Shown here: positions 1 to 42,960 of the stretch, piece after piece
Numbering within the stretch: the stretch's first letter is position 1
Layout: every line of letters starts with the position of its first letter
Origin: Cyanidioschyzon merolae
Lineage: Eukaryota
Reading direction: 5' to 3' (one strand)
NCBI GenBank assembly: GCA_000091205.1
Contig: AP006501.2
DNA length: 64,000 nt
Made by a program: the position numbers and the translations under genes
Notes under the pieces: generated by a model
Told to the model about the DNA's origin: nothing
Databases searched by the model: none
The model's input: only the letters and a program-made list of their open reading frames with translations

Positions 1-1383
1 GCGAAGCACGACCAGTGCTTCGAGTCGCCCCGGACCGAGCACCCCTGGAAACTCGACTCGAAACCAACCGCAATCGCTGTCGGTAGCGGACTCCATCCAG
101 TAGAGGAGGACGCGCTCAGCATCACACGGACGAGTACAGGACGCTATCCACTCGCGCAGGAAACTTGGTTGTAGTTGCGCCCGACGCAGGTCGAACGACC
201 CGTGTCGACGACTCCATCCAGGCCAGAAACTGGTCTCGACAGCCAAGGACGCGTCGGTGACAAGCACTCGCGGCGGACACAGGTGCTGGAAACGCTTCCA
301 TGCCCAGATCGCTGCATTCCAGTGCGTCCATTGCTGGTCCAGGTGGCGTTGGTAGAGCCAGAACAACTGCGCACTGCGTTCATCACGAGTCTCTGGATGA
401 TAGAGTCGCGGGGCGGCCACCTGCATCGTCCACGCCGGTGCAAACAGCGCTACGCTCGCTCCGGTCGACCAGGCTACGTCGAACGCTTCAAAGGTGCGGA
501 ATCCACCGCCACCGGGCATCTTTCCCCGCCCGTACACATCAATGCCTACATAAATATCCTTCGCTGGTCGATTCAGCTGCGAGGCTCGCGCTACCGACTC
601 GAGCAGCCTTTGACCTGTTTCCCAGCGGTAATCCAGGTACATGGCGGAGGCGACCTGGAAAAATGCCTCGTTTCTCGCATTCAGCCTGGACTGATGGGCG
701 AGTTCACCATCCACCGTCAGGGCATCATACCAGATGACCGCTGCATGAGTACCCACTCGTTTCTGCAACTGCTCACGCAGCGTCGAGACAAAGATCAACA
801 CGCGCTGTATTGCAGGCGACAGAGGAGTGCTCTGGTTGCGCGAGCTTGGCGAAACCTTGGCATCGTCGCGAATTTCCACTTCAAAGTTCACCAACCAGCC
901 GTCAAAGCTAAATAGTTCAGCTAGACGAGCCAATCGATACGCGAGGAAGAAGATCGTGCGCAGATGGAGTAGCTGCTCCAGCAGGGCACCCCCGGCAGCG
1001 TGTTCGAGGACGCAGCTCCCAAAGCAGCGCACATGGTGCCGATGAGCGGCCTCGACCCAAGCCGGAGGCGGCATCGACACTCCATGGTGCGTGAAGTAGA
1101 CGAAATCGTCGATGAAAGACCACTCTCGAAAGTGGTACGCGAGCTCCGCCTCGGTTCGTGACCTCGTGCCATAGCACTCTGCGACGCTGTACGGTTGCGG
1201 AGCGTCGTGGCAGAGCAGTACGCGTTGGTGGCGCGTTGTCGACGGCTCTTGGAACGGAACTCGACTTTTTTGATCTAAATGTAAAGCACTAGATGATTCA
1301 TCCCAGTGTAAGAGCTCTTTAAGCGAGGAAAAGTACCATGAACCCGCTCCAGAGGTGGTTGAGGGCGTCTCCCCCATCCCATG
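1..1383 (-). CDS. Endo-beta-N-acetylglucosaminidase, GH85 family (partial; the C-terminus lies beyond the window start)
   Basis: Manual reverse-strand translation gives GH85 hallmarks: 'RVLLCHDA', 'FIDDFVYFTHHG', 'FDGWLVNFEVE' (catalytic Glu region), 'VIWYDALTVDGELAHQSRLNARNEAFF' and 'LDYRWETG'. The + ORF at 175..915 is antisense noise. The start is approximate; it may include an intron or an upstream Met. Confidence 0.6.
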
Positions 1384-1438
1384 AGCGCCAATATCGGCTG
1401 TGTACGATGCGAACGCGGAGCACCACAACACTGTACAG

Positions 1439-2497
1439 GATCATGAGCTGTACAGTGTAGGTAGGATTCCAAAGTGGTATGAGATATTCTTACTTGTCGT
1501 TAGACGTTGGATCATGAGCTGTACAGTGTAGGTAGGATTCCAAAGTGCTATGAGATATTCTTATTTGTCGTTCGACGTTGGATCATGGGCTGTACAGTGT
1601 AGGTCGGATTCCAAAGTGCAATGAGATATTCGTACTTGTCGTTCGACGTTGGATCATGAGCTGTACAGTGTAGGTCGGATTCCAAAGTGCAATGAGATAT
1701 TCTTACTTGTCGTTCGACGTTGGATCATGAGCTGTACAGTGTAGGTCGGATTCCAAAGTGCAATGAGATATTGTCACTTGTCGTTAGACGTTGGATCATG
1801 AGCTGTACAGTGTAGGTAGGATTCCAAAGTGCTATGAGATATTCTTACTTGTCGTTCGACGTTGGATCATGGGCTGTACAGTGTAGGTCGGATTCCAAAG
1901 TGCTATGAGATATTCTTACTTGTCGTTCGACGTTGGATCATGAGCTGTACAGTGTAGGTCGGATTCCAAAGTGCTATGAGATATTCTTACTTGTCGTTCG
2001 ACGTTGGATCATGAGCTGTACAGTGTAGGTCGGATTCCAAAGTGCAATGAGATATTGTCACTTGTCGTTAGACGTTGGATCATGAGCTGTACAGTGTAGG
2101 TAGGATTCCAAAGTGCTATGAGATATTCTTACTTGTCGTTCGACGTTGGATCATGAGCTGTACAGTGTAGGTCGGATTCCAAAGTGCTATGAGATATTCT
2201 TACTTGTCGTTCGACGTTGGATCATGAGCTGTACAGTGTAGGTCGGATTCCAAAGTGCTATGAGATATTCTTACTTGTCGTTCGACGTTGGATCATGAGC
2301 TGTACAGTGTAGGTCGGATTCCAAAGTGCTATGAGATATTCGTACTTGTCGTTCGACGTTGGATCATGAGCTGTACAGTGTAGGTCGGATTCCAAAGTGC
2401 AATGAGATATTCTTACTTGCCGTTCGACGTTGGATCATGAGCTGTACAGTGTAGGTCGGATTCCAAAGTGCTATGAGATATTCTTACTTGTCGTTAG
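1439..2497. repeat. 71-bp tandem satellite, about 15 units, in the ENGase upstream region and the DHFR-TS 3' region
   Basis: The unit 'gatcatgagctgtacagtgtaggt(a/c)ggattccaaagtg(c/g)(t/a)atgagatatt(c/g)ttacttgtcgtt(c/a)gacgttg' repeats with a 71-bp period (units begin at 1439, 1510, 1581 and so on). There are a few polymorphic positions. Confidence 0.9.
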
Positions 2498-3303
2498 GCT
2501 TCTTGCTTGCTTTCAATAGTCCTTGCGCGCTGCCAGGGTACGCTGGACTTTGGAACGAGATTCGACTTGGTTGCTGAGGCAGCTATGAGTAGCTCGAAAT
2601 GCAGCATAGCACAAGTTCCGTAGCTCATGGTAGCTTCTCTTTACACTGGCGACAGGGAGCCGGGTACGCGAGCTGAGCCAACATAGAATTAAAATCTTTA
2701 GTCGAGTTGTCGGCAGGAGACTTCCCGTTCTAGTAAGCAACTCGCAAGCTTGACGGAGACCCGTCGTTGCACGCTGTAGCTCAGCAGTTGTGCTCCCCTG
2801 CGTCAAGCGTGACGTCTGCAGCATGTGCCCTGGGTGCCCCTCGTACCCTTTCCTGGAATCGCTGCCACACAGCTGTTGTTCTCCCAGCGCCCGACTGCAA
2901 GCGTCTTTGCTCACGGCAAGTAGAGCCTGCAAGAAGCTTGAGGTCTCGGAAATGGGTCACAATTCCAAGTGCTACGCACTAGAGGCCGTGTTTATTCGCA
3001 CCTGAATATAGACAGCATCATAACGCGTTTGCTACTTGCATATACCAAGCCCGCACCAGAACCAAGCAGATACCTCGACCAAGGGCTTCGCTCGGCTACG
3101 TGTCGTGCTCAAGAACTCGCCAGTGAACTGCAACCGGTGCGTAGCGGCTCCATGCATCACCACTCTCGACTGGGCAGAGGGAAAAGAGGAAACGAGTTGC
3201 ATCGGGTTCAAGCGCTCGTCATTCTGCGAGCCCGGCCTCGAGAGGGCCCCCTGGATACCACTTTCGTTCGGGGTCAGCGTCGACACGTTGTCACCGATTG
3301 GCA

Positions 3304-4911: not shown

Positions 4912-6361
4912 ATATTCAGCTGCTTTGACACAAAATAGAGCTGCTTTGGTGCAGAGATAATCCTCATGCGTAGAAGTGTAGCGCAGCCGTTTCCCGCGCT
5001 TGCGATCGCCAGCGGCCGCGGCATGCGTTCGCCTGGTGGAATGCCTCCAGCGGCAACATCAGGAACGCAACGCTGAACTGAGTGACCAGCTCCTGTCTAG
5101 AGATTTTACCGAACTTTTAGAGTCTTGGCGCTAAAATTGCGGGAAACAGGGTGAACCATTTGATTCGTCGTGTGATGATATGGTGTTGGGGGTTTCAAGC
5201 GGCGCATTCCGCGCTGTTCATCTGGAATTCATGATGTCATCGTGATCGGGATGCTTGTCGATGCACTAGAACAAGCGTTCGTAAATGAACCGATATTATG
5301 ATCCGAAACAGAGGTGCGGAACGTTGTTTTTCTGCATCCGTACAGCATGTTCATAGTATACGTTCTCAAAATTTTTGATCGATACGTTTCAAAGTAACTC
5401 GAATGCGCAGTTATTCGCGTCCCTGGATTGACCGAGGGACACACTGCCGTCCAGTATTGACGGAATATGCACAAGATCATGCCGGAGGTTGACTGAATAT
5501 CTTAGGTCAACTAATAGATGCCGTTTGAAAGAGATACCCTTCATTTTTTGCGGTTATCAATGCAACGGCATTCGACAGCAGTCTTATACCGCTCAGGGAG
5601 TATTTGTCAGCAGGGCGCCGTCTCTCTGGGATGGATGGAGAGGCGTCTTGGACTCGGACTCGAGTCATTGTCGTGATCGATTCGAGTGTGGAGGGCGTCA
5701 ACGCCGTACACGATAGGAACTTTAAGGAGTAGTCATTTATTCACAAGTTCTCCATCCTAGAGTTTCCTTACTTTTGTGTTTTATCGTGGACAACTTTGTA
5801 TTCTACAAATCCTTGATCGATTCGGAGAGCGACCGCTTACTTCAGCCGCGGCCAGTATACTCATAAATGGGATCGTCCGGAAAAAATCCGCGTCCATATC
5901 GTACAGCAGTGGGCGCGGAATCAGTGGAGATCACCCAGTCGAGCCCTGAGTGCCTAACACGGGCCTTTGCTGAGCTATAACGCAAGCGTTCATGTACCAC
6001 AGGGCGGCTTTCGAAGAATGAAATGTGGTGGACATCAGCGAACGCCCTTCCGCTGTCAAGCGTCATTGCTATGAAAGGTACACCGAGGCTATTTCTTAAA
6101 ACAAGATGAAAGAAGCATGCAAAGCGTAGATCACAACTGTCGACTGTGCGTGAAATACTTTGATACCAGCTGAAAACTCCAGCTTCGAGACGAGAACGCT
6201 GCTACTACCACGATCGTTTGAACGCTGATAACAGCACTACAGGGAAACAAGTGTCCAGCGTCTTGAATGCCAAAGATACCGTTGCGAAAGAGCAAGCAGT
6301 TGCAGAAAAAGCCCCTGACGCTAATCCTCATACAAGTCAGAAGTCAACCCTAACTTGAATA

Positions 6362-6858
6362 TACCAGTCCGTGCCAACAAACTGCATACCTTTCATACTC
6401 CGCTGATACGAACAGATGACAGCATTGCCTCTAGCACGCGCACCAACTCTAATACATACATACATACCAGACCGTGCCAACAAACTGCATACCTTCCATA
6501 CTCCGCTGATACGAACAGATGACAGCATTGCCACTAGCACGCGCACCGACTCTCATACATACATACCAGACCGTGCCAACAAACTGCATACCTTCCATAC
6601 TCCGCTGATACGAACAGATGACAGCATTGCCACTAGCACGCGCACCAACTCTAATACATACATACATACATACCAGTCCGTGCCAACAAACTGCATACCT
6701 TCCATACTCCGCTGATACGAACAGATGACAGCATTGCCTCTAGCACGCGCACCAACTCTCATACATACATACATACCAGTCCGTGCCAACAAACTGCATA
6801 CCTTCCATACTCCGCTGATACGAACAGATGACAGCACTGCCACTAGCACGCGCACCGC
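6362..6858. repeat. Roughly 103-bp tandem repeat (period 99-107), 5 units, with an embedded (ACAT)n microsatellite
   Basis: 'gtgccaacaaactgcatacct(t/c)ccatactccgctgatacgaacagatgacagcattgcc(a/t)ctagcacgcgcacc...catacatacata' recurs at 6371, 6474, 6573, 6680 and 6783. It lies in the divergent intergenic region between DHFR-TS and the kinase. Confidence 0.85.
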
Positions 6859-16890: not shown

Positions 16891-19333
16891 CTATGCTTTG
16901 AATATCGCTGTTCTGAATATAAAAAACATGACATAAGATCGCAAGGTCCGAGCGACGCACGCAATTCTGTGCGTTAAGTTTATCTTGTAACAGGTGTTTT
17001 CGCGAGTCTGACCCCTCAATATCCATCGACGCGTTTGAGTGCACGACGACGACAGCGTGGATGTGTATACACCGACGTATAGACGCTTCTCAGTCTTTCT
17101 CGACTGGCCACCTACTACTGGGTTCAAGTTCTCCTTGTGCAATTTAGCCCTGTGAGGCTGCTTCTTAAAGTTGGTTCGCGTCAACCCCGGAGACCTGCTC
17201 TCCAGCATCGCACATCTCCTGATATCAAGAGCGGCGTTAAAGTCACGATACAAGAACTCTATGCGATTCTTGCCTCTGATGGAACGCACCAGTGCAGGTA
17301 GGCCTCGAACTCGTGCCCCGTTCATTGCCATTTGCTCTTGCGTCAGCGCTCCGTACTTTTCTGTATCCCCAGGGCTCCGCTGACACGTTTTCGTCTCGAC
17401 CCTCTGAAGTGTGCACCTCTGCTCATGGTGTCTATAGGACATTCGGAACTCATCTGTCGGTATTGTGACGAAACGCTTTGCGCATTCTTTATACGTTCTC
17501 GATGTTGGAGCGGGTGTACACCCGTTTTGGGTCATCTAGCGCCCTGCTCCGAATGCGACTGCGGACCTTTAACTCCTGTCCTCCTTCAAGGCGCTCAACG
17601 CATTGAAAAAGTCGGCAAATGCTCGCTGCTTCCCGCAGTGTGGATTCGTACGCGGACGAGCCCACCGGAGCTTGGTATACTCTCTTCACAGCGCCTCCCA
17701 ATGCGCTACGCGAACTTTCGTGAATTCCCGAAAACCTCGACTGTTCGCTCCGCGGCTCGTCGCCTCGCTCATAGCTACCAGGTGCTCTTTCATATCTGCA
17801 TTCCACGAATCGATTTGCTTCCTTGCATTCATGATTCCCCGATTCTCGATAGTATCTTGCTCTCGAGAACCTCTAAAAGTCGCATGTCTTTCTGACCTTA
17901 GTTACCGTCAGTACCATCTGCCGCACGCCTGGGTACTCCGATGGTTACGATATTCGTGTTGCCGGGGTCCGCGCCAACACCCATGTCGTTCTGCGTCGCA
18001 GGACCCGCCTCATTCTGTTCTTTATGTGCATTGCCGAGAGCGATATCGAGGACTGACCAGGACGATCCGCCTCCTTGAAGCGCCTAGAGTGTACATTTAT
18101 TGTTACCCCATCGGTTTCGATCATCCCCATGAATACAGTTTTCTTGCTCTTTTTGAGACGTTTGAAATCGAAGATGCTCTTCCAGTACGTCTCCCGGTTC
18201 TCGCCGTTGAACGCCTCCCTGCTTACATCGAGCTCCGGACTGATCTCCTTCATGATGCCGTGAAGGACTCTGGAGTTGATTGAGACAATGCGCGACTTGA
18301 TCTCGCATATCGGAACGAAGTTGAAGCGCTTCTCCAGAATCGCAGCCTGCCGTCTCTCGGACTCTTGAATTCTTCGCCTATCCAGCTCTTTTTCGGCCTT
18401 GCGCTCGATCTCTCGATTCAGAAACACAAGCTATCACAGGACTAGGGTAGTACATCTTTTACCATCTGTTTTCCATATCTGATACCGTTTCTGGTGGAAT
18501 CGCCAGCCCTAGAACCGCATGCTGCGTTTGAACAGCTCCACGGATCACGGAAGATTCATTCTCTCTCCTGCGTAATTTCTACTTGTCTACAAATTCGATC
18601 TCCTGCTCAAGCTGACTATCGTTCGTGATGCCATTGATGAAGTTCCATATCCCTTTGCGAGACAGGCACGAGTAAAGTGCAAAGATGGAGCGTATCGTGA
18701 AATGTTCGGGGATCATGATCACGTGGTTCCTCAGGTTCATTAGGTACTTCAACGCTTCGTAGGTGTAAACATTCGAGTTCCGCCCCCCAGATCGAGTGCC
18801 TTCGAAGCGGTACTTGGGGCATTTTTCGTGGAGGGCATCCACCAGCTCATTTCTCCTCGACGCTTGCCCTGTCCCAAGCATCACGTACCTTATAAAGGTC
18901 TTTTCAAAAAATTCTTCCGGAACCTCGACTGTTCTGATGTCTGCGACATCGCGATACATCTCCCGCACCATACGCATCAGTCCTAAAGAAGGCTTCCAAA
19001 TACTCATCCAGTAAGACGCGACACGGTTTCTGATGGATTTTCGCAACTTTTGCCTATAAGGATGCTGGGTACGGCGTAGGAGAAAGGCTATCATTACCAT
19101 CTCGTCGAACTGTCGTCTTTCGAGCAGCTTCTGACGTTGGGCCTCCCCCTTTTGCTTCTTCGTCTTTTCCCGTTGCTATGGTGTCGGAAATGTTTTTCGT
19201 TTCTTGCTCTGGCAGCCGGCGACACCGGCCATCCGGGGTCCTTCGGCTCCGTTGCCGTTAATTTCCTTTTTCTATTCTTGAAAGCGATCCCATTTCGACT
19301 GCGTCGGCTAAAATCGCGAAAAATCACTTGCAC
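16891..19333 (-). pseudogene. Fanzor/TnpB-like nuclease gene, copy A (frameshifted, with internal stops)
   Basis: ORF fragments 18579..19100, 17945..18427 and 16891..17535 are collinear with copy B. Matches include 'FLLRRTQHPYRQKLR' against '[15 protein letters not shown]', and '[30 protein letters not shown]' against '[30 protein letters not shown]'. The RuvC-I block reads '[11 protein letters not shown]' (about 17945-17990) and the C-terminal motif reads 'YRDFNAALDIRRC'. Frame 17536-17600 reads '[28 protein letters not shown]', with two stops where copy B has '[13 protein letters not shown]'. Confidence 0.65.
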
Positions 19334-19500
19334 AAACTCGCTTGAGGGTTGAAATACGATTCAGCCGAAAGACTATACTTTGCTGGGGGCTCAACGCAAA
19401 TACATGTTGTACGTTAGAGCAACCCGCTCAGATGAAGCATCGCGTTTCCCATCAACGGCGTGATACGCGTCGTCTCTCACGCATGCAAGATAGGGAAAAG
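16990..19500 (-). mobile_element. Fanzor-family element, copy A (degraded, about 2.5 kb)
   Basis: Reverse-complement nucleotide homology with copy B extends from about 29920 and 19478 at the left end to about 32705 and 16990 at the right end. Identity is about 70%, higher in motif blocks. No transposase ORF was recognised inside the element. Confidence 0.55.
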
Positions 19501-19599
19501 CGCGTATTGAGCGTGCTGTCTAGAACAAGGAACAGAAACGAACCACCAACTAGCAACGATGTACAAATTTCTTTCCCTCTTTACGATAAACGATAAAAG

Positions 19600-20170
19600 G
19601 GGGAAAGGTTTCCGCATTTTCGAAAGTTTCCTCTCTCGACGGAAGGTCCCGCGAGCCGAACGAGTCTGTCGAGCTTGCGCTCTGTGGGCACCCACCGTTG
19701 TCAGGTGCTGGGGCGAGACACGACCGCCTCCTCTGCCATAGAGTTCATTCTGGGAACAGCGGCGGTCATGCTGCAACTGGGCATCGCCCTGGTCGCAGTG
19801 GTCGCCTAGAATGTCGCTTCGCGCTGCCGCAGGCAGTAGGTCTATCAGCACAGTTTGCAGGCTCTCAGAACGATTATGAATACCGACTCCGTATCAGGTG
19901 CACCGTACATCGGTCCGATGCCCTATGCGATATAGCAGAGCTGTTCTCTATACCGTGCTGCATCGGATTCAGCGGTTTAGGCGCTACTGCGGGCGCTCAG
20001 GGCAGGCACTTGGTGCACGATAGATCCTATGAAATAACCAGTATATCCCAGAGGAAGAACAAGTAATGGAACTTGGAGGTAGGGTACAGTTTAATGGACG
20101 CGTTCCCGAACCCCATTATCCATCCCCACACTCTGGTACCCAGGTTCAATGGAAACATGGGGTCATCGGA
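19600..20170 (+). repeat. Repeat 'U', copy A (a 450-570 bp dispersed repeat flanking the Fanzor left end)
   Basis: Direct-orientation homology with 29440-29885. For example 'gtaatggaacttggaggtagggtacagtttaatggacgcgttcccgaacc...ggttcaatggaaacatgggg' matches 'gtaatctaacttggaggaaggtgcttcatcatggacgctttcccgaaagcc...ggtcaatggaaacgtcttg'. Confidence 0.5.
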
Positions 20171-29439: not shown

Positions 29440-29885
29440 CCACCGTGTGTCTCCACCCCAAAATTTCGACGATGCAATGCCCGTTTTCGAAAAAGTACCT
29501 GCCTAAGGTTCCACCTTCGAAGCGTCACCGTCTCGAAAACGCAAAAGCGCACGCTTCCGCAGTGCGCATTCTAGCGCGCGGCAAAGTGCGAAAGCAACAC
29601 GCATCCGGCGGCGGCGTGTCTACACGCATCCGGCGCTGGGATGGCGGGATCGCTGCGAGCACGCATGCTGCAAGCGTAGCGGCGCTATAGGCGCCGCTGC
29701 TGTCGCTATCGGCAAGCACTAGGCACACGCAATAGCACGTATGAAACGACCAGAATATCTGAGAAGAAGTACAGGTAATCTAACTTGGAGGAAGGTGCTT
29801 CATCATGGACGCTTTCCCGAAAGCCACTATCCTTTCCGAATTCTGGAATCCATGGTCAATGGAAACGTCTTGTTAATGAAAAAAA
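29440..29885 (+). repeat. Repeat 'U', copy B, immediately 5' of the Fanzor copy-B left end
   Basis: Direct-orientation homology with 19600-20170 (see copy A). Confidence 0.5.
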
Positions 29886-30220
29886 CGAATCGCGCTCGGT
29901 GGGCGCACCTGGGAGATCAGGCAGTCAACTGACGCGATGCGCGTGCCGTTGTTGAAGGGAAACTCATTTGGGATCACGAGCGTGTTGTTCAGCTGTAAAA
30001 TGTTGGATTTCCGTTCAGGTCGTAGCCAAGTAAAGTTTTTCAGTTTATTTTTGTTTCAAACTTCAAACACGTTTAGTCAAGTGTTTTTTCGCAGTATATA
30101 ACAGCAGGGCTCAAAGAGCGTTCTTTTTCAAAGAAACTAATAAAAGGAAAGTTATGAAAAACCAAGTCCACGATCCTGGAGCCCCAGTGTCGCCGGCTGC
30201 CAGAAAAAAAACAAAAAACA

Positions 30221-32530
30221 GTGCCGAGTCCAGAAGAAAAGGAAGAGAAGAAGGACCGAAAGGGGGAGGCCCTACGTCGAAGGCGGCACGAGAGACGACT
30301 GTACGACGAGGTGGTGGTGAAAACCTTTCTTCTTAAACTTATCCAGGATCCCTATAGGAAAAAGTTGCGAGGCGCTATCGAAAAACGTGTCGACACGTAC
30401 TCCAAGAATATTGTCAAGGCGTCGTCGGGACTGATGCATTTAGCGAGGGAGATGTACGAAGACGTCGCGCACATGGAAACAGTCGAGATTCCAGACGAGT
30501 TCTTCGACAAGACCTTTATTCAACACCTGATGCTTGGTACAGGGGAAACGCGGAGGGAAAATGAGCGGGTGCACGCCCTCCACGAAAACTTCGCGGGATT
30601 CCGCTTCGAGGGTAATCGATACAAGGGTGACTCGAATATGTACGGCTATGGGGCGATGAAGTACCTCACGAACCTGAAGAACCATTCGATAGTGAACCTC
30701 GAACGTTACATGATACGCGCCTTGTTTGCACTCTACCCGGGCATCTGTCCGAAAGGAATATCAGCGATTATCAATGGCATCACGCACGATCGCAAGCGTG
30801 AAGATGACATCGAATTTGTCGACAAGAAGGCATCAAAAGTGAGCACGAATGAAGCTTCTGTAATCCGTGCGGTTATACAAGAGCACCGTGCGGTACTGGG
30901 GCTGGTGAGTCCAACAGACAAGATATCAGAGTCGAAAAAGGATAAGGAAAGATACTATCGCCTCATCCTGTGCTATTTCGTGTTTCTGGACCGAGAGCTC
31001 GAACGCAAGTCGGAGATGAACCTGAGTGAAGAGACAAATGAAGAGTACGAGAGACGGAAGGCTGTCCTAATGGGGAAGCGCTTCAACGTGGTTCCAATGT
31101 CCAATATCAAGTCACATTATGTGACTACCGACTCCAGAGTCCTTTACGGCATCATGAGGGAGATCAGTCCCGAATTCAATGTTAGTGTGGAGGGCTTCAC
31201 CGGCGAAAACCGGGAGACGCACTGGAAGAATATCTTCGATTTCAAACGTCTCAAAACGAGCAAACAAAATGTATTCACCGGGATGATCGAAGCCGATGGA
31301 GTAGCCTTGTGTGTACACAATCGGCGATTGAAGAAAGTTCGTCCAACTCCGCCTTCGGCTGCGCCCGTCATGAAGGATGAAGAAAACAAAGAGGAGGATC
31401 CTGTGACGCAGGAGGAGCAGGATGACGACCTTGTCGTTGGCGTGACGAAGGATGAAGAAAACAAAGAGGAGGATCCTGTGACACAGGAGGAGCAGGATGA
31501 CGACCTTGTCGTTGGCGTGACGAAGGATGAAGAAAACAAAGAGGAGGATCCTGTGACACAGGACATGCATGATAACGATTTTGTCGTTGGCGTGACGAAG
31601 GATGAAGATGAGAAGGAGGCGAGTCCTGCGACGCAGGAGGTGGAGAATAACGACTTTATGGTTGACGCGACGAAGCATGAAGAAAAGAAGGAGGCGGATC
31701 CTGCGACCCACAAAGTGCAGGATAACGACTTTGTCGTTGGCGCGGACCCTGGGAATACGAATATCATAACCATCGCTGCTCCCAAGCGTGCGGAAGATGG
31801 TACTGATGGTAACTTACGTCAGAAAGACATGCGTCTGTTGAGGTTCTCGAGAGCGAGATACTATCGAGAATCGGGAATCATAAATGCAAGGAAGAAAATC
31901 GAGACTTGGAATTCAGGAATGAAAGAGCACCTGGAAGCTTCGAGCGAGGTGACGAGCCGAGGAGCGGACTTTGAAGCTTTTCGGAAATTCACGGAAGTTC
32001 GCGTTGCTCATTGGGAGGCGCCGTGAGAGGAGTATACCAAGTCCCGGTGGGCTCGTTTGCGAATGAATTTGTATTGTGGGAAGCATCGGGCATTCGCGAA
32101 TTTTTTCAATCAACTGAGTGCCCTGAAGGAGAATCAAAGTGAGAGGTTGGTAGTGACGTACGGAGCAGGGCGCTGGATGACCCAAAAAGGAACTACGCCA
32201 GCTCCAACGACGAGAACGTACAAGGAATGTGCAAGGCGTTTCGCTACGATGCCTGTAGATCGGTTCCGAACGTCCTATACACACCATGAACTGGGTTGTA
32301 CACTACAGAGAGTCGAGATGGAAAAGTGCCAACGGAGCTTTGAGGACATAGCAAAGTACGGACCGATGACGGGGGAGCAAATGGAAACAAGGGCGAACGT
32401 TCGTGGACTCCTTGCACTTGTTAGTACAGTCAATGGCAACGAAAAACGGATGGAGTATGTGAATCGTGACTTTAATGCCGCTCTCAATATAAGGAAATGT
32501 GCGGTGCTGGAGAAAAGACCTCCAGAGTAG
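30221..32530 (+). CDS. TnpB/Fanzor-like RuvC nuclease homolog (eukaryotic OMEGA-type); one in-frame TGA at 32024-32026 separates a 601-aa ORF (30221..32026) from an in-frame 157-aa ORF (32057..32530)
   Basis: The N-terminus is basic and NLS-like ('[20 protein letters not shown]'). RuvC-I-like '[17 protein letters not shown]' sits at 31727-31780, with the Asp codon at 31745-31747. The RuvC-II-position block is '[13 protein letters not shown]'. A Cys/His cluster 'YKEC...HHELGC...EKCQ' follows. RuvC-III hallmark '[15 protein letters not shown]' sits at 32456-32500, with the Asp codon at 32468-32470. Frame 2 is open from 30158. The track start is a GTG, and an ATG at 30154 lies in frame 1. Confidence 0.7.
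31372..31746 (+). repeat. 75-bp (25-codon) in-frame tandem repeat, 5 units, inside the Fanzor ORF immediately before RuvC-I
   Basis: The unit is 'gaaggatgaagaaaacaaagaggaggatcctgtgacgcaggaggagcaggatgacgaccttgtcgttggcgtgac'. Units 1 and 2 are near-identical, 3 to 5 are progressively diverged, and the last unit runs into 'DFVVGADPG'. Copy A has a single unit. Confidence 0.9.
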
Positions 32531-32705
32531 ACAAGACGGAACTTTATCGGACAACCTCTCAAAGTCGAACTATATGAGAAAAAGTTGGAAGACGTAGTGG
32601 GTGACCCGTCGAGAACGACTCGCAGCCGTCTGCACGTCAGTCGGACACGTCTTGTCCAAGGCGCAGTTGCTGCCACGACTGTACACAGCCGGAAGCTGTG
32701 ACTGA
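32440..32705 (+). ncRNA. Candidate omega-RNA / right-end scaffold region of the Fanzor element (inference only)
   Basis: The segment from the RuvC-III coding end to the right end is conserved at about 65-70% among copies A, B and C (core '...cgtcgagaa(c/a)gactc(g/a)(c/a)agccgtct(g/a)(c/t)acgtc(a/g)gt...'). By analogy with TnpB/Fanzor loci, the guide scaffold overlaps the 3' end of the ORF. Confidence 0.25.
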
Positions 32706-34782: not shown

Positions 34783-37700
34783 TTAGACGGAACGCCCAAA
34801 CCAGTGACGACACCGACGCTGGAGCACTTGCAGCGCGTGCTCGTTCGTTGCACCCTCAGCCTCCGCAGCGATGATCAGGAGACGTTCGGCCAGATCAAGA
34901 ACGGCTTCACCGCAGCTCTCTCCGACTTGTGGCAAGTTGTGGCCAGTCAGGGGCCACGGACAGGCGTCTACCAACGCCGCAGAGCCTGTCCAAGCAACGT
35001 CCGGCGAATCAAGCATCGAACCTGCATCCTGGAGGAGATCATTCACGAGCACAGCGTCCGTGTAGAGCTCCCAGACGAGTTGCAAATCCACCGGCCGAAC
35101 GAGTTGCGTTGCGGTAACCGGCTGGATCAGTTCCTGTGCAGCAGCTGCGGGGCATGCGACACCAGCAAAGCCGTTCGCAAAAGCGAAAAGGTTCCGCTCT
35201 ACAATCAGGGTCAGACATTCCGCATCCAACGCATTGTGACGTTGCATCCGCCGCGACAAAGTGCGTTCCAGCGCCAGCATGGTATCGTAACGGAGGGTGC
35301 ATTCGAGTAACCGCACATAGAGCGCAAAACATCGAAACTGCCAGTACGCAAAGCAGTGGTTATCGTAGAGCAACGGTGCATGCGGCAACTGCTCCGGTGC
35401 TACCAGATACCGGTGGTTCCACATCAACCAAAAATAGCCGTGCCGCGAAGCGCTCGACGCATCCACACGAAACAACGGCTCCAGGGCAGTGATCGCTCGC
35501 GCAGCGTCCTGATAACCACAAAAGACGCCCAAGGCGTACAGGTAGGCACTGCGATACGACGGCAGCTCAGCAAGTTGCGTCAGCACAGACCCAAGCTCAT
35601 CGTTCGATCCATTCGACCTCGTCGACCGCGTCGTCGTCGTTCCAGGATGTGCGCTCTTCGAACTCGGGATCCAACCGAGCGCTTGGTAGAGCGCATTCGC
35701 CAGCACTGCGAGTCGGTACTCGAGCCACGGTGAGTACTGCAACTGGGCCTGGCCGTGCAGTTGCTGAGAAAGTCGCGGCAAAGCGTGTTCATAGCGCGCA
35801 AGTCGTTCGGCGATACGCTCGACACTGCTTGCGTACGACACGGGGGGCGCGGCTTCGCCAACCTCCCGTAACCATTGCCAGTAATCGAGCAGAAGCGCTA
35901 CTTCTGACTCCGCTGCTGGTGCGTCTTCCGCATCCGGGGTATCGTCTTTCCCGTGCGCTTGTTCCCGCAATGTGCACAGCAGGTTGGGCATGGAAGCACG
36001 CGCGGATTCAACTGCGCGCTTTGTATCCGGCGCAAGTGTATCCCAAGCAGCAGCCGGGATATGTATCGGAAGTAAGAGATAGGCACAGTAGAGTGCCTCC
36101 CAGTGAGCAGCAGTATGGACAGCGTGAGCGTTTGGTGTACGTTTTGCGCCCGTGGCGTGTCTGCATGAAACGGAAGCGGCTGCTTCAGGAGCCGACGCGT
36201 GTCCAGCGGTACCGCTGTGGCTCGTCATTATGATTACTGCATCCGGGGCGTGTTTGTTGCCACCAGACGCGATCGTCTGAACGCCCACAGCGAACCGATG
36301 TGCTGTGAGCAGCCACTCCACGTACCTGTGAAGACGAAAGCGGTTCGCGTTGCCAATAAGTTCCGCTGTTTCCAGTGAAAACTGTGCAGCATGACGCATA
36401 CAGGTCGCCAGTGCCAGTGTTAACTCGGAATCATCGAGTCGCGGACAGAGTGCGCGTCTGTCCTCGAGGTTTGATACTTCCGAGTTGCATGCGAGCTGCT
36501 GCTCGGTACGCTCAATCGTACCTTTGCCGGGATGATCAGCAACGATGCCAACAGCCGCGGTAGCAGCCTCAGAAGACGGAGCATCTATCGCAGAGGCAGA
36601 GGTATCTCGTGAAACAGCTTCCGGATCGACAGCCTCGACCGCTGCTACTCCTGCTTCGGATGCATTGCCCGAGCCGGTTGCTTTCCTTTGCGTTGCTGCC
36701 GCGGGAGCAGAAGCCGCTGTGCCCATTTCTGTAGCTGGCGTCGGGGCTGCGGCTGTCTCCGATGCTGTTTCCGTTGACGACTTGGCTGCACCGGGCGACT
36801 CGTGCCGTGTCGCCCGAAAATACGGGCTAATTCGTGGGGCTGGGTTGTCGGCCTCAGGGGACAACAGCCCCTGTAGGCGCTTCCGGCCAACACATCGTTC
36901 TTGCTGCGGAGCATCCTGCTTCAAAGCTGCCGATCCAATGAAGAAAGGAAGCAGCAACTCAATGAGTGTCTGAAGCGCGTCTAGCAGCTCGGTTGGTAGC
37001 AGTCGAGCCCGTCGCTCTGGTTCAGCCACTCTCTTGTACTCCAGGTCCAGGTACTCCATCTGCAGCCGGAAATGATACAGAAGCAGATCCCGATAACAGG
37101 GCAACAGATAGCGCTGCTCGATACCGCTTGCTGCTTGGATCAATTTCCCAGTCCATTGCCATAGCGTGCGAATACGGGGTCGTGAGCGACTCGCGAGCAC
37201 GTCGTCAAGTTCGGACTGACCGAGGGTCAGCGCCGGACAGAGCGCCTCCGGTGGAAGCACCATCTGCTCTGGACGCAGCGCTCTAGCCAAGGTCCATGCA
37301 CTGCAACTCGCTGCCACTGGTGGACCAGATTTCAGTCCGATCGCTGAGCAGTCTAGGCCATAAAGCACATGCAGGCATTGAATGCGCTCCCAGTCGAGAC
37401 GCGAAAACCAAGAAGGATCCCATTCCGGACTACACAGCGAACATCCAAGAAACCAACGCGCTCCTTGCTCTGCAGAGAGCCGCTCCCACAGCATTCCCGC
37501 ATAGAGCTGGTAAAGGAGGCTACAAGCCTGCCGCATTCGTTCGGAGGCTCTTCGTTCCATGGACAAGGCCGTCCCACGCTGTAGCCGCAGCGCCAAGCCG
37601 TGCAGAAGCTGATGCAGAAACGCACCGGCGGAGCAGCGAACAGCTTCATCCGAGTCTGAGAAAGCGTGCGTTCGGATGAAACGCTCTCGCCCAACAACAA

Positions 37701-40700
37701 AGAGACCAAACACTGCCGCCCATTCGACCAGGAGCTGATCATGCAGGTTTTGCTCAATGATCGACTCGGACGGGGCTACATCCCAGAGCAAGTCTAGGAT
37801 TCGCGGCAACGACACGCCGAGCATCTGATAGAGTTTGTGGCGCAGCTGAGCTGGCACCACGAGTGTCGCTTTCCCCAGGGCGTCAAGTTCCCGACGCAAG
37901 CTCTGCGCTAGAGCGGCTAGCTTTCGCCAGCGTGAAAGCGACGGCTCCCTACTGCGCTGGGCTTGCGCTTCCAATCGCGGAGACGAGTCCGGAGAGCGTG
38001 CAGTCGGAGCTGCAGACGCTGAAGCGGTTGCCGCCGTGACTCGCAACGTTACGCGCTGCAGCTCCTGCGCGGCAACGACTGCAGCACCGCCGGCATAGCG
38101 CGACAACAGCTGCCGCAATCTGACCTGAACAGTCTCGATTGGAAGATCCAAAAACGACAAGAGACGCATGAGCATCGCTTCCGAGTCCAGCATCTCGGTC
38201 TGAAACGTATCCTCGGAGGCGCCTAAACTCTTCCAGAGTTGTTCGAAGGCCGCATACTGGAGGCATCGAAGCAGGTCTATCTTGCCTAGGTGCAGCGATG
38301 TTTCTTCGGGGAGAGCGGCGTGCTCGAGGAGCTGATCCGGATGCAAGCCCGCCATCCAGCTGCATAGCACCTGGCATGCACTCGTTGCCTCCGGTCCGTT
38401 CTCCGCTGCAGTCGATGCGGAAACGCTACGGCAGCGCTCCTGTGCTCGACACGCCTCAGCGGATGCCAGCTGGGAAGCGTTCCCCGATGCCTCTGGCAAC
38501 TCCAGCAGTGCAGTGGATGCTGACGCTCGCCGGCGCAAGCGCCAGGCGCGCAGCAGCCTCTCGACTGGAGCATCGCTCTCCGTTACAGACATATCCTCGC
38601 AGAGCGGCGAGGTATCCTCGAAAACAAGTGCGTGTGTGGCTGTCGTCCCTGTGACAGGTGCAACCGTGTTCCTGCACCCCAGCGAAACAGACCCCTGAAT
38701 GGCTGTTTCCGTCCTTGCCGGATATTTCCCCGATGCTCGCCCGAAACGCTCCGTTGCTGCGTCATTTTGCAGCGCGTGTGCAGTGTCATCTGCAGTGTCT
38801 TTGGGATGCACTTCATCCGCTACGAACTGGCCTGCGGCGTGCCGCGGAACGGATATCTGCGACACCGATACCCCCGCAGCTGTGCTCTCATTCGCTTTGC
38901 TGGGTTCAGTCTGGTATTCTGCTTCCATGCTTGCTGCGATCGTGCATTCATTGTATCCGCTGGATGCTTGCAAAGCCTCTCTCTCAGCACAGGCTGACTG
39001 CTGACTGGTTGGCGGCTCCTGTGGCGACACCGATACCCGCTGAAGGCGCCCTGATGTACAACGTTTCCCTGCACTGTCCACGAAATGCGCTTCAGAAACG
39101 GTCGTATGATCACGTTGCAGGCGCTGAACATCTTCCCAGAGCGCGAGCGCTCTCTTGAGCGCATCCATCGCAGCGTTCCAATGCTTTTGCCGCAGCAAGT
39201 TCAGGGCGTGCAGGTACATGTACCGAATGAGCAACAGCATACGGATCGTGCTTGAAGGCAACAGGCCCTCCCGCATATAACCATCAAAGCAGGCTCGCGT
39301 CCTTGTGAGGACGTCGTCCACCAGTGACCAGTCTCCCGCCCAGAACGCAACCTCCAGGAGCGCTAGGCTACGCCACATCCATACCAGCCACCAGTGAGCG
39401 CGTTCCTCTTGTGGTATCGCGCTAGACGCTGGCGTGCCTAGCACGAACGACCCGGTACCGTTCGGATGCCAACTGATCCATAAATGATAAAGGCGACAGA
39501 GCTTTCGCGCTAGCGTCGTACGCATTCGCACTGGAATCGTCATCATTCGATCAAGTGCTTCGCCTAGTATTCGGTTCACGAGCGTTGTAAGCGGCAGAAG
39601 CGACTCGTGGAACTGAAAAGGCGCTCCCACGGAGCGCACAGCGTCGATGATTGTTGCGTTAGCTACCCGAGCTGTGGGCGTCTCTTGAACAGACTCGATC
39701 ACTTGTGCTGCCTGTGATGATGAAGCCGGATTCTGCTGCTCGGTAGCATCGTAGTCACGCAAGGCGTCGTGCAGCTGGCAACGCAGCTGTTCTAGAACTG
39801 CTGCTGCCTCTGGTGTTGCAGTTGCAGAAGCCGCATCTTGGTCGTTGGATGGCAGCAAACGCGATGCTGGTGCCGCTCCGTTGGCACCTGCGCCTCCGGG
39901 AATCTCACCAGCTGATATTCCTGCAATAATCATGGAACGTGGGACTGAAGAACTTCTAAGCGAAGCCTCTGTCTCGTACCGAAGAGACCGACGCGTTCTA
40001 CGGGCAGGTGACTCGCTTTCCGCAGTGGAAACACCAGCGCGGTTTGGCTCTGAACAAGTTTCCCCCGAACGGGAGCTTCGCGCCGGAGGCACCGTCGCCA
40101 CCGCCACCACCTGAGGGTCGCTCTCTACGCCGCCTCCTTGACACGTGGAGCATATTCCCCGTTGCTGCTGCTGCTGCTGCTGCATTGCTTCGTTCACCGT
40201 GACTGCAGCCGTTGCACTAGCAGCTCGACCGCGTGTCGAGGCCGTCAATGACGTCACAGGGTCACTGGTTGTACCACGAGTCGATTCGCATGCCGTTCGT
40301 TTCGAATGCTTGTGTTCCACTGGCTGCCGCTCTGCCGCTTCTGAGCCTTCCCTGGGTGATTCGCTAGCACCAGATGCACGGAGCTTGTTCGGTAACTTGG
40401 TCACTATCGCTTTCTTTGACGTTAATCCAGGCGCCGACTCTTGCGCCTCGGCCGGAACGCATGCACCTGCACGAAGCATGCCGCTATCCACCCGTTCTGA
40501 CACGCCTTCCTGCACGAACGAAGAAGATTCCGTCGTTGTCCGCATCACAGTAGCCACTCTTCCCGCCACCTGTTCAAAGGATGCAGCATCATCACCAACA
40601 CCACTAGACGGAAGCGCTGCAGCTCCTACACTAGAGAGCGGGGAGCGTCGAGCATCCGTTACGTGCCCGTGCGCGCCTTTGGCAGAAAAAGATGCTGCGG

Positions 40701-41913
40701 TTTCGCGTTCATCCCGTATGAACACATTGGCGGTGAGCAGCGGCTCTGCTGTATCCATTGCAAGACGCTTGTGTACCAATTGATCCACTTGATCGACTAC
40801 ATCGAAAACCAGTGCTCCGTCGTCATCCATTGGTATGATAGACAACACCGACGACTGCGACGATTCAGTTGCCTTCTCGCCCTGTGATTGTCGACGCCTC
40901 GTTCCTGCTGCCTCGCTTTCCAGCGTTTCATGCCGGCGTTTTCGTCGCCACGCCGCACTGCTCGCATGCGCTAGACAAGTAACTAGTCGTCGGTGCAGCT
41001 GTCTAAAAAGAATATTCCAGGCTGGCAGCGCCTTCTCGCTCTGACGCAGCAGTGCACGCGTCTGGCGCAGGGCGAAACAACACGCGCCTCGATACCCTGC
41101 AGCTTCAGCAGTAGCTGCGGCCTTCAGCCACAACAGCACGGTTTTCGGTTGGTAGTGCGTTGCCTTCGCGTACGCTTCGAAGGCTGCTGCGGGTTCACCG
41201 ATCCGTTCGTATACTTGTCCCAGGCTCCAGGCGCTCAGGTAACCTAGCCGCTTGATCCACGGGGCATCTCCCCGCTGCGGTCGGGAACTTGCCGACTCCA
41301 ACTTTTGTTGCTCAGCGAGCAGTCGCAAGACTCGTTCAAAACCGCTCGCTGCCTCGCTGAAACGTCCGTCTGCGAAAGCCTCGGCAGCTTGCGAGTATAG
41401 CCCTCGTAGTTCCGGCTCTAGCGGGAGTTTGGACGCAGGTTGATCACGTGTTACTTTGCTGGTTGCTTTCTCAGTTGATTCAATAGCAGATGCTGGCGCA
41501 AACCCCAGCATCTTCACACCCTGAGCCTTGTCAAGTCCAGTGAAGAGTGCGCGGGAACAACACGGCGTCGGTTTTTTTAATGGTGCGCACGAGCTATCAA
41601 CGTTTCGCTTTTTTTCGTTCTTCCGTGGACTCGGTTCAGATGAAAACGGAACCCTGAAGAGCGCGCTCGATTCGTTCATGCCGTCTTTCTTCCCCGGGAT
41701 TTTGGTACCTGTAAAGACTTGATATTCAATGAGCAGCATAGGAAGGTTTGCGGACTCATAGATTGGACTTGGATTCTCGGGCGTGTTTTCAGTTTGGCTG
41801 TTTCGACTTGCCGCCGCTGGGACATGAACGGTTCGCATCATCACGATGATTTGCGACGACCTCGAGCAACAGTTCGCAAAATACCCGAGCTTGTTATCGA
41901 TTCCATACATGGA
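34783..41913 (-). CDS. Large TPR-repeat-containing protein (about 2400 aa; possibly CABIN1/Hir3-like, unverified), with Ser/Ala/Thr-rich disordered regions
   Basis: One uninterrupted ORF. TPR-like helices run along its length, for example 'LGQVYERIGEPAAAFEAYAKATHYQP'. The track start is a TTG at 41991. The first in-frame ATG is at about 41911-41913, and the true start is uncertain. Confidence 0.55.
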   Translation of the reverse strand, partial: SMYGIDNKLGYFANCCSRSSQIIVMMRTVHVPAAASRNSQTENTPENPSPIYESANLPMLLIEYQVFTGTKIPGKKDGMNESSALFRVPFSSEPSPRKNEKKRNVDSSCAPLKKPTPCCSRALFTGLDKAQGVKMLGFAPASAIESTEKATSKVTRDQPASKLPLEPELRGLYSQAAEAFADGRFSEAASGFERVLRLLAEQQKLESASSRPQRGDAPWIKRLGYLSAWSLGQVYERIGEPAAAFEAYAKATHYQPKTVLLWLKAAATAEAAGYRGACCFALRQTRALLRQSEKALPAWNILFRQLHRRLVTCLAHASSAAWRRKRRHETLESEAAGTRRRQSQGEKATESSQSSVLSIIPMDDDGALVFDVVDQVDQLVHKRLAMDTAEPLLTANVFIRDERETAASFSAKGAHGHVTDARRSPLSSVGAAALPSSGVGDDAASFEQVAGRVATVMRTTTESSSFVQEGVSERVDSGMLRAGACVPAEAQESAPGLTSKKAIVTKLPNKLRASGASESPREGSEAAERQPVEHKHSKRTACESTRGTTSDPVTSLTASTRGRAASATAAVTVNEAMQQQQQQQRGICSTCQGGGVESDPQVVAVATVPPARSSRSGETCSEPNRAGVSTAESESPARRTRRSLRYETEASLRSSSVPRSMIIAGISAGEIPGGAGANGAAPASRLLPSNDQDAASATATPEAAAVLEQLRCQLHDALRDYDATEQQNPASSSQAAQVIESVQETPTARVANATIIDAVRSVGAPFQFHESLLPLTTLVNRILGEALDRMMTIPVRMRTTLARKLCRLYHLWISWHPNGTGSFVLGTPASSAIPQEERAHWWLVWMWRSLALLEVAFWAGDWSLVDDVLTRTRACFDGYMREGLLPSSTIRMLLLIRYMYLHALNLLRQKHWNAAMDALKRALALWEDVQRLQRDHTTVSEAHFVDSAGKRCTSGRLQRVSVSPQEPPTSQQSACAEREALQASSGYNECTIAASMEAEYQTEPSKANESTAAGVSVSQISVPRHAAGQFVADEVHPKDTADDTAHALQNDAATERFGRASGKYPARTETAIQGSVSLGCRNTVAPVTGTTATHALVFEDTSPLCEDMSVTESDAPVERLLRAWRLRRRASASTALLELPEASGNASQLASAEACRAQERCRSVSASTAAENGPEATSACQVLCSWMAGLHPDQLLEHAALPEETSLHLGKIDLLRCLQYAAFEQLWKSLGASEDTFQTEMLDSEAMLMRLLSFLDLPIETVQVRLRQLLSRYAGGAAVVAAQELQRVTLRVTAATASASAAPTARSPDSSPRLEAQAQRSREPSLSRWRKLAALAQSLRRELDALGKATLVVPAQLRHKLYQMLGVSLPRILDLLWDVAPSESIIEQNLHDQLLVEWAAVFGLFVVGRERFIRTHAFSDSDEAVRCSAGAFLHQLLHGLALRLQRGTALSMERRASERMRQACSLLYQLYAGMLWERLSAEQGARWFLGCSLCSPEWDPSWFSRLDWERIQCLHVLYGLDCSAIGLKSGPPVAASCSAWTLARALRPEQMVLPPEALCPALTLGQSELDDVLASRSRPRIRTLWQWTGKLIQAASGIEQRYLLPCYRDLLLYHFRLQMEYLDLEYKRVAEPERRARLLPTELLDALQTLIELLLPFFIGSAALKQDAPQQERCVGRKRLQGLLSPEADNPAPRISPYFRATRHESPGAAKSSTETASETAAAPTPATEMGTAASAPAAATQRKATGSGNASEAGVAAVEAVDPEAVSRDTSASAIDAPSSEAATAAVGIVADHPGKGTIERTEQQLACNSEVSNLEDRRALCPRLDDSELTLALATCMRHAAQFSLETAELIGNANRFRLHRYVEWLLTAHRFAVGVQTIASGGNKHAPDAVIIMTSHSGTAGHASAPEAAASVSCRHATGAKRTPNAHAVHTAAHWEALYCAYLLLPIHIPAAAWDTLAPDTKRAVESARASMPNLLCTLREQAHGKDDTPDAEDAPAAESEVALLLDYWQWLREVGEAAPPVSYASSVERIAERLARYEHALPRLSQQLHGQAQLQYSPWLEYRLAVLANALYQALGWIPSSKSAHPGTTTTRSTRSNGSNDELGSVLTQLAELPSYRSAYLYALGVFCGYQDAARAITALEPLFRVDASSASRHGYFWLMWNHRYLVAPEQLPHAPLLYDNHCFAYWQFRCFALYVRLLECTLRYDTMLALERTLSRRMQRHNALDAECLTLIVERNLFAFANGFAGVACPAAAAQELIQPVTATQLVRPVDLQLVWELYTDAVLVNDLLQDAGSMLDSPDVAWTGSAALVDACPWPLTGHNLPQVGESCGEAVLDLAERLLIIAAEAEGATNEHALQVLQRRCRHWFGRSV

Positions 41914-42960
41914 AACGCCACTGTTCTCGCTTCGCTCTCCATAATATCCTCGAACCTGGTACGCCTCACCTGCTGGATCTTCAATCACCAAACATAAGCG
42001 TGGGCATCGGGGAAGCTATCCAAACCGCTGGCTGGACGGAGAATCGTAGGCGGCTTCGCCACTTTTGTAAGCGGCTTTCACAAGCTGGTGCCTAAAGTTT
42101 ACTGACCCTGTCATGCCACATACTCGATTCTGTTCGAAACACGAATCCTCGTCCGGATATGCCAGCCGACACAATGGAACTCGACAGCAGCCGGATGAGG
42201 GTCACGACGCTTGCTGCCTGAGGCTCCCGACTCTAGTGTGTTCACGGCCAGGGGTCTTGGACTCGGACTCCAGGCATCGAGGCGGTCGTTTCCAATGGAC
42301 TTGTTGTGGTCGCCTTGCACGACGCGCAGGGAGTGCGGACGGATCGACGTTTCTCTACTTGTTCTGTAGGCTGGATTTTCCGTTCGGTCATTGCTTCACC
42401 AAGGGCAATATCGAGTTCGACTTGCTGCGTACCGAGTGGCGCAACGTGCGCTTGCACCAGCATCGAACAGCGTACGCACCGAGGAGATCGCCCAGAAGAA
42501 GCCCGTGGTGGTTCGGTATGACAACGGGCACGGAAACGGAGAAGAGCATCTGTGGAAGCCGCCTGTCGCGGTTAGGGGCATGGAGCGAGCGGCGAAGCAA
42601 GCCCTCACGGTCCATAGAGTGTACGTTATTGGCAAAGGTCTAGAGGTCATACGTGCACACCAGACCGCAAACAAGAGTGACCGCTTGAAAGAGCGCACCG
42701 GGTCTGTATGCAGAGAAGATGGGCATGGCGAACGAAGCGTGGATCGCGACTTGTACCTGTGCCTGATATGGGTCGATGAGAGCTGGAAACTGCGGGACCG
42801 GCACTTCAAACGCTGCCAACGATGTCCATCGCCTGCTGGCAACGGAGCTGGAGTGGCAGGAGTGTCCGGTGTACGCAGGTCCGCAGGAAAGCGACGGGGT
42901 ACGGAAGCGGCTCAAGAAAAGGTCCAAAACCGCAGGTTTCGTTGATCGTACCAAGATACC
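41637..42960. repeat. Segmental duplication, copy 1 (1.3 kb; includes the 5' roughly 120 codons of the TPR gene plus about 1 kb upstream)
   Basis: About 97% identical to 51797-53120 at a constant offset of 10160 bp. Identity starts at 'cagatgaaaacgg' and ends near 'cgttga'. Confidence 0.9.

Follow-up and report, generated by a model that had tools for sequence, protein, structure and literature searches.

A probable fossil insertion of the Fanzor1 transposon CMe-1A in a 64-kb stretch of Cyanidioschyzon merolae DNA, with decayed relatives nearby

The closest described element to the one studied here is CMe-1 of Cyanidioschyzon merolae. Its description by Bao & Jurka (2013, Mob DNA 4:12, PMC3627910) gives a copy number of about 150 and an identity of about 80% between single copies and a consensus of roughly 3 kb, and states that CMe-1 has no terminal inverted repeats (TIRs), that its target duplications are undetermined and that some copies are still intact. 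In the CMe-1A form, the 5' 635 bp were described as identical to another repeat, TE-N2_CMe, and the same account contains the remark that the coding capacity of CMe-1 had been kept unusually long for a 'non-autonomous' family. In Fanzor1 nucleases, the canonical RuvC-II glutamate is replaced by glycine or proline, and an alternative glutamate located downstream is essential (Jiang et al. 2023). Here, we analyzed 64,000 nucleotides (nt) of C. merolae DNA (assembly GCA_000091205.1, contig AP006501.2), a stretch hereafter called the window. A previous sequence-only reading had proposed that it carries a pseudogenised Fanzor-like gene (copy A), a second copy serving as intact reference (copy B) and a 3' fragment (copy C). 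Our analysis indicates, with a probability of about 0.9, that copy A is a fossil insertion of CMe-1A, a transposase-less Fanzor1 transposon family of C. merolae (Bao & Jurka 2013). The earlier proposal was right in substance, although its coordinates and some details needed correction; the family was already known, and copy A is among its most eroded members.

Copies A and B compared with CMe-1

As a reference, we used the 3169-bp CMe-1A consensus and the 734-amino-acid CMe-1 protein, both available from the supplements of Bao & Jurka 2013. Positions 1-3092 of the consensus aligned by blastn to window positions 20168-17071, with 79.6% identity over 3116 columns, and weak traces of the 3' end of the consensus could be followed further, to about 17023-17015. 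Copy A had been assigned the span 16891-19500; the consensus mapping places it at about 17015-20168, about 670 nt of its 5' end having been missed, and the segment 16891-17015 is a mere read-through of a chance open reading frame (ORF) lying outside the copy. Homology to CMe-1A over its full length, at the family-typical level of about 80%, was therefore found for copy A, and copy B is 84-87% identical to the consensus over positions 648-3143. The forward TE-N2_CMe 5' part is present in copy A and absent from copy B. Copy A matches the whole consensus, and the level of divergence, the length (about 3 kb) and the absence of obvious TIRs are as published for CMe-1A; judged by sequence, copies A and B belong to the published CMe-1 family. 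The DNA identity of 80-87% to the CMe-1A consensus also bears out the proposal that both copies derive from one Fanzor-like family.

The lesions of copy A were then scored codon by codon against the consensus. The start codon is changed from ATG to ACG (19258-19256), and the body of the ORF is interrupted by five frameshifts near 19207, 18477, 18029, 17874 and 17840 (seven with a second aligner) and by eight in-frame stops at 19178, 18581, 18436, 18433, 17900, 17688, 17571 and 17538, which agrees with the broken frame reported earlier. Some motifs are still readable, namely GADPG (17975-17961), TDEFR and RDFNAA (17247-17230). The 3' end is degenerate and the terminal hairpin found in other copies is gone. 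Copy A has therefore lost its start codon, its reading frame and its 3' hairpin, and is dead. Among 41 full-length copies it is the most degraded, with 80.5% identity as compared with 84-88% for the others. We give next to no credence to the idea that it is functional, its frameshifts and stops being due to assembly errors or to programmed recoding. Errors in homopolymer length are indeed common, and copy B has one lesion in an A-run, but eight stops, five to seven indels that are not restricted to homopolymers, an ACG start, 20% divergence from the consensus and neutral-looking private changes are hardly accounted for in this way.

The collinearity of copy A (- strand) with copy B (+ strand) was confirmed by blastn, with 72.2% identity over 1340 columns and 75.7% over 971, the homology being distributed over five inverted-repeat blocks, and all the peptides that had been quoted from the two copies were found in their frames. 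It is highly improbable that a host gene family gave rise to A and B by segmental duplication. They are only 10 kb apart and inverted, as such a duplication could leave them, but their homology ends at the element boundaries, their flanks are unrelated, 71 further loci occur in other contexts, about 150 C. merolae copies are reported in the account of CMe-1, and the 3' boundary is common to dozens of copies.

Copy B is a lightly decayed CMe-1 element of a different structural subfamily. Consensus positions 648-3143 correspond to 29891-32692, whereas positions 6-189 are found inverted at 29873-29688 and positions 190-647 are missing. Since it combines this inversion with this absence, copy B belongs to a sister structural subfamily of CMe-1A; an inverted TE-N2 5' end of this kind is not known to be described in Bao & Jurka 2013. 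Its conceptual protein is 80% identical to CMe-1 and aligns with it free of gaps once four extra repeat units are removed. These units belong to a 75-bp minisatellite located just upstream of RuvC-I, which adds 300 nt in frame as compared with the consensus and encodes acidic units of 25 amino acids. A single unit is present in copy A and in the consensus, and the unit number also differs in the related proteins P0001 and P0012. At its end (32680-32700), copy B carries a 6-bp hairpin, CACAGC...GCTGTG, instead of the family hairpin.

Copy B had been treated as an intact reference, which does not hold. Its ATG at 30154 is split from the main frame by one extra nucleotide within an A-run (near 30205), a TGA replaces a conserved tryptophan codon at 32024-32026, a TAG at 32528-32530 cuts off the C-terminus, and the essential alternative RuvC glutamate Glu603 is changed to arginine (VDRFR, 32261-32263); GADPG and RDFNAA are retained. 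With one frameshift, two stops and a lost RuvC glutamate, copy B is also a pseudogene. A near-identical ortholog from a related strain was found in a metagenome (locus L009): it is 97.5% identical, runs into the same Tim17 flank, and carries the same TGA.

This TGA at the conserved tryptophan is also found in copy A (17686-17688) and in loci L018, L019 and L032, and one could thus imagine a recoded or read-through codon, or a single dead master that was still transposing, the more so as copy B has otherwise few lesions. We consider both quite improbable. Of 70 family matches at this codon, 60 have TGG; most large ORFs in the window normally end in TGA; and copy B is further disabled by another stop, by a frameshift and by the loss of its active site. 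Moreover, copy A is equidistant from all copies (72-74% identity), with no special kinship to copy B, the 5' modules of the two differ, and we estimate that about three independent G-to-A hits are expected among about 45 copies at 14-20% divergence. For these reasons, the shared stop is judged to be a coincidence of independent TGG-to-TGA transitions. TGA recoding or selenocysteine at this position was rejected.

The assignment to Fanzor1 was obtained with profiles. Single sequences gave no significant match to Pfam or PDB: copy B alone reached only a sub-threshold hit to PF07282, and phmmer of copy B against PDB gave nothing. When a profile of seven sequences was used in an exhaustive HMMER search, 3285 cluster representatives were retrieved at E<=0.001, and 65 sequences drawn from them served to build a family profile and alignment. 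Submitted to hmmsearch against PDB, this profile matched PpFz1 (9cf0, E=1.7e-24), SpuFz1 (8gkh, 7.9e-19) and GtFz1 (9cer, 9.8e-12), and 19 of the 65 members matched PF07282 (Cas12f1-like TNB domain). In the alignment, the catalytic residues D484 (RuvC-I, GxDPG) and E656 (VDEFR) are invariant and D725 (RuvC-III, NRDxNAAxNI) is nearly so, the canonical RuvC-II site is a glycine (AYGAG), and E656 lies about 35 residues downstream of it, in agreement with the rearranged site of Jiang et al. 2023. The alternative glutamate is retained in copy A as TDEFR and, as seen above, lost in copy B.

The family is old and has multiple members, as previously proposed. Four Fanzor-derived loci (A, B, C and D) lie in the window, and the suggested search for more copies returned 71 related loci in metagenomes, in differing contexts, which add to the roughly 150 copies given for C. 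merolae in the 2013 account. When 5.8 billion proteins were searched with the product of copy B, 57 relatives were obtained, nearly all of them fragments from a few JGI metagenomes; many bear the Pfam label DUF8286. No relatives were detected among viral contigs, and a literature search returned no further paper on Fanzor in Cyanidiales.

Substitution pattern of the family

To follow the history of the copies, ratios of nonsynonymous to synonymous substitution rates (dN/dS) were computed by the Nei-Gojobori method (NG86) and compared with neutral simulations started from the consensus with the empirical substitution spectrum, with or without CpG context. The ratio is 0.50 for copy A versus the consensus (bootstrap 95% 0.40-0.64), 0.37 for copy B versus the consensus (0.29-0.48) and 0.50 for A versus B (0.41-0.63). 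The neutral simulations gave 0.77 (0.59-0.97), and not 1; none of 400 reached the observed values, and CpG context had no effect. Differences between A and B are distributed over the three codon positions as 169/169/219, i.e., 39% at position 3 (chi-square p about 0.01). The sequence-only reading had described them as concentrated at third positions: the excess is real, but it is modest and that wording overstated it. An even distribution over codon positions with dN/dS near 1, which would have spoken against divergence as functional genes, was not seen between A and B.

We further split the differences of each copy from the consensus according to whether they are shared with other, non-redundant copies, the neutral expectation being 25.5% synonymous. 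In copy A, private differences (n=147) fall on codon positions 45/52/50 with 27% synonymous, those shared with one or two copies (n=140) on 47/50/43 with 26% synonymous, and those shared with at least three copies (n=125) on 38/19/68 with 53% synonymous. Copy B behaves in the same way, with 48 private differences (16/14/18, 19% synonymous) and 193 shared with at least three copies (51/43/99, 48% synonymous). The third-position excess of copy A thus comes wholly from substitutions common to other copies, and its new stops fall among the private and near-private ones. Since the shared substitutions are rich in synonymous changes and the private ones stand at the neutral expectation, the lineages diverged under purifying selection and each insertion then decayed neutrally. 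Together with the dN/dS values, this split upholds the earlier claim that the lineages diverged as functional genes before copy A decayed. Private or near-private divergence is about 13% for A and about 4% for B, so that the decay of copy A has lasted about three times as long as that of copy B, A having been dead longest and B having died recently. About 70% of the divergence of copy A is decay after inactivation.

There is a small probability that dN/dS below 1 reflects mutation bias or gene conversion between dead copies rather than past selection on the nuclease. NG86 is indeed biased, as the simulated 0.77 indicates, and many copies lie near each other, which would allow conversion. However, the empirical spectrum, with or without CpG, never led the simulations to the observed values, and the private substitutions of copy A, at 27% synonymous, reveal no general third-position bias, the shared ones alone being enriched. 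The two-phase pattern, selection on the lineages followed by neutral decay of the insertions, provides independent support for the remark of Bao & Jurka on long-kept coding capacity.

Modular ends and transposase relics

The 5' side of the family is modular. A fixed boundary was found near consensus position 645 (window 29877-29890 in copy B and about 19515 in copy A), upstream of which at least three unrelated modules occur: among 32 copies, 11 carry the CMe-1A/TE-N2 type (as copy A), 8 an inverted TE-N2 terminus (as copy B), 9 a third module and 4 unique flanks. This suggests that a 2.5-kb core element has been repeatedly joined to, or targeted by, other repeats. The 3' boundary is sharp, and the 3' 180 nt are well conserved. 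Most copies end in a terminal hairpin, which occurs in two forms, CGTCGTTCGA-CTT-TCGAACGGCG and CGTTTTTC-TTTT-GAAAGGCG, with compensatory differences (e.g., L047:1625-1801), and further compensatory variants are present among the copies.

Copy C had been described as a 3' fragment, located at 55560-56100 and keeping only the last roughly 130 codons plus the downstream conserved region. It does contain 'NRNLNAAMNIRRY', but its Fanzor part covers 55694-56044 and codons 611-730, and the conserved 3' region lacks its terminal 75 nt or so. It is 70% identical to the consensus at the nucleotide level and 53% at the amino acid level, the RuvC-III aspartate is changed to asparagine (NRNLNAA, 55871-55851), and the codon-position pattern, 30/29/40, is not significant. 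Immediately upstream of copy C and on the same strand lies a Tc1/mariner-type (DDE_3) transposase pseudogene, detected by tblastn with the DDE_3 proteins found beside P0053 and P0057 (E=3.5e-19 and 5e-13); its aligned frame is interrupted by stops. A transposase followed by a Fanzor tail is likewise found in loci L059 and L061, and the junction itself recurs in L060 and L072, so copy C is a member of a repeated composite of transposase and Fanzor tail, and neither a random fragment nor simply the 3' piece of a copy like A or B.

Copy D, which adds a fourth locus to the three previously pointed out, is strongly decayed and its ORFs are only fragmentary. It was detected by tblastn with P0052 (amino acids 420-675, E=2.8e-29) and P0001 (E=5e-12), and it is nearer to the P0052/P0053 lineage than to CMe-1. 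A DDE_3 remnant again lies upstream on the same strand, and a third one runs off the window end; the latter is 67% identical to the remnant associated with copy C over 513 nt, which accounts for the inverted repeat I6. All three remnants were identified with queries annotated as PF13358, and their identity as DDE_3-type transposases is thus supported. P0053 and P0057, which among intact relatives are closest to CMe-1 (about 40% and 29% identical, respectively), are both encoded just downstream of DDE_3 genes. When transposase proteins were compared with the CMe-1A consensus, no match was obtained.

On these grounds we tentatively put forward, as a possibility that we do not favour over its negation, that the 'unclassified' CMe-1 elements are transposase-less derivatives of a Tc1/mariner-Fanzor1 lineage, of which copies C and D and the window-end remnant would be relics in the same genome, and that a 2.5-kb hairpin-ended core was repeatedly joined to 5' modules at a fixed boundary. 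If this is true, CMe-1 could be assigned to a transposon class and would have a candidate enzyme for its mobilisation, both of which were lacking in 2013. The coordinates of all these features are collected in Table 1.

Table 1. Fanzor1- and transposase-derived features in the window, with strand and the basis on which each was placed
Feature	Position	Strand	Basis
Copy A, probable CMe-1A Fanzor1 element, almost complete in length and heavily decayed	about 17015-20168	-	blastn to CMe-1A consensus
Copy A, 5' module (consensus 1 to about 647, TE-N2_CMe-like)	19516-20168	-	contiguous within consensus alignment
Copy A, Fanzor1 ORF remnant	17055-19258	-	lesions scored codon by codon against the consensus
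Copy B, lightly decayed CMe-1 element, different structural subfamily	29688-32692	+	consensus alignment
Tandem repeat inside copy B, 75 bp, in frame, 5 units	31291-31740	+	repeat search
Copy C, Fanzor1 C-terminal remnant (consensus nt 2737-3095, amino acids 611-730)	55694-56044	-	local alignment
Tc1/mariner-type (DDE_3) transposase pseudogene upstream of copy C	56151-56954 (to 57021 at its widest)	-	tblastn, E=3.5e-19
Copy D, strongly decayed Fanzor1 remnant, P0052-like lineage	43353-44410	-	tblastn
DDE_3 transposase remnant upstream of copy D	44648-45168	-	tblastn, E=8.6e-18, 38-44% identity
Third DDE_3 transposase remnant, off the window end	63526-64000	+	tblastn, E=2e-10

None of copies A, B, C and D can now produce the nuclease. 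For annotation, about 3.1 kb at A and 3.0 kb at B, together with relics C, D and E, represent transposon remains that should be masked and not treated as genes. The window as a whole has about 55% GC and looks like intron-poor eukaryotic DNA, with ORFs of up to 2402 amino acids and TGA as the commonest stop; Rfam and transfer RNA scans of it gave no matches. It also contains a 300-nt direct repeat with 96% identity, at 41628-41927 and 51788-52087, 10 kb apart. The copy at 41628-41927 overlaps the start of the 2402-amino-acid ORF (34783-41991, - strand), and the other overlaps an ORF of 226 amino acids (51471-52151, - strand). Two tandem arrays are found at 1367-2589 and 6361-6857, one of them long, with 71-nt units, at least 14 registers and about 95% identity, and the second with units of about 100 nt.

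Proposed life of the element and comparison with known systems

Judged from the family, the live element would have been a core of about 2.5 kb, in which a leader of about 260 nt precedes a 734-amino-acid Fanzor1 ORF. The predicted protein would combine a basic N-terminus resembling a nuclear localisation signal with a RuvC nuclease carrying the Fanzor-type rearranged glutamate, and the conserved 3' end would close in the terminal hairpin. If it worked as characterised Fanzor1 and TnpB do, the protein would associate with an RNA transcribed from the 3' end of the element itself and cleave DNA that matches this RNA. For its movement, the element would need a transposase in trans, and the Tc1/mariner enzymes are candidates because their relics adjoin copies C and D; like RNA guidance, such mobilisation is proposed by analogy. 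Joining of different 5' modules to the core would have produced the structural subfamilies, with a TE-N2_CMe-type module in A and an inverted TE-N2 end in B. Master lineages diverged under purifying selection on the nuclease, single insertions decaying neutrally afterwards.

Several results weigh against parts of this picture. None of 39 full-length related loci, scored against the 10D consensus, is a fully intact CMe-1-type copy, so that any present activity of the family in this organism is hypothetical. The AlphaFold2 model, calculated from a 34-row alignment, is poor, with a predicted local distance difference test (pLDDT) score of 55 and values below 50 in the RuvC half; the top six PDB matches of this poor model in Foldseek are all Fanzor1, which may be read as consistent with the profile results. 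The CxxC...CxxC cysteine pairs of the zinc finger are absent from CMe-1 between RuvC-II and RuvC-III, where CMe-1 reads ...LALVST and PpFz1 TSSFCPKC...LLRCKNMSC, wider relatives keeping only LWC. RNAalifold returned no consensus structure for the 3' 200 nt (205-column alignment), and a guide-RNA role of the 3' end can for this reason be argued from analogy and the terminal hairpin only; Rfam gave no match that would support a 3' guide RNA. Finally, local alignment of ends revealed no convincing TIR in the copy C composite or in the intact mariner-Fanzor relatives L079, L078 and L003. This absence, which could be due to decay or to incomplete contigs, leaves the link to a mobilising transposase circumstantial.

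The import of these results beyond annotation is little. The lead they offer lies in the transposase relics beside Fanzor remnants and in the modular 5' ends, which together could settle the mode of movement.

With the bacterial TnpB of IS200/IS605, CMe-1 shares a RuvC-type nuclease, and its hairpin-bearing 3' end would match the omega-RNA region; unlike these systems, it is eukaryotic, its protein is much larger (734 amino acids), its RuvC-II glutamate is rearranged and it has no TnpA. As compared with the characterised Fanzor1 proteins, CMe-1 lacks the zinc-finger cysteine pairs and its guide RNA and nuclease activity are putative, the window copies being all pseudogenes. It nevertheless shares REC and RuvC profile homology with SpuFz1 (8GKH), PpFz1 (9CF0) and GtFz1 (9CER), and the motifs DPG (RuvC-I), (I/V/L)DE(F/Y)(R/K)T(S/T) (alternative glutamate) and NRD (RuvC-III) with characterised Fanzor1. 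In contrast to mariner/Tc1-borne Fanzor1, a transposase is missing from copies A and B, neither TIRs nor TA duplications were recognised, and all that copy C retains of the Fanzor gene is its final stretch of about 120 codons. The likeness to those elements lies in the arrangement: as with PUl-1 of Pythium ultimum, in the account given by Bao & Jurka, and with the Fanzor1c associations presented by Jiang et al. (2023), a DDE_3 gene or its relic stands directly upstream and on the same strand at C, D, P0053 and P0057.

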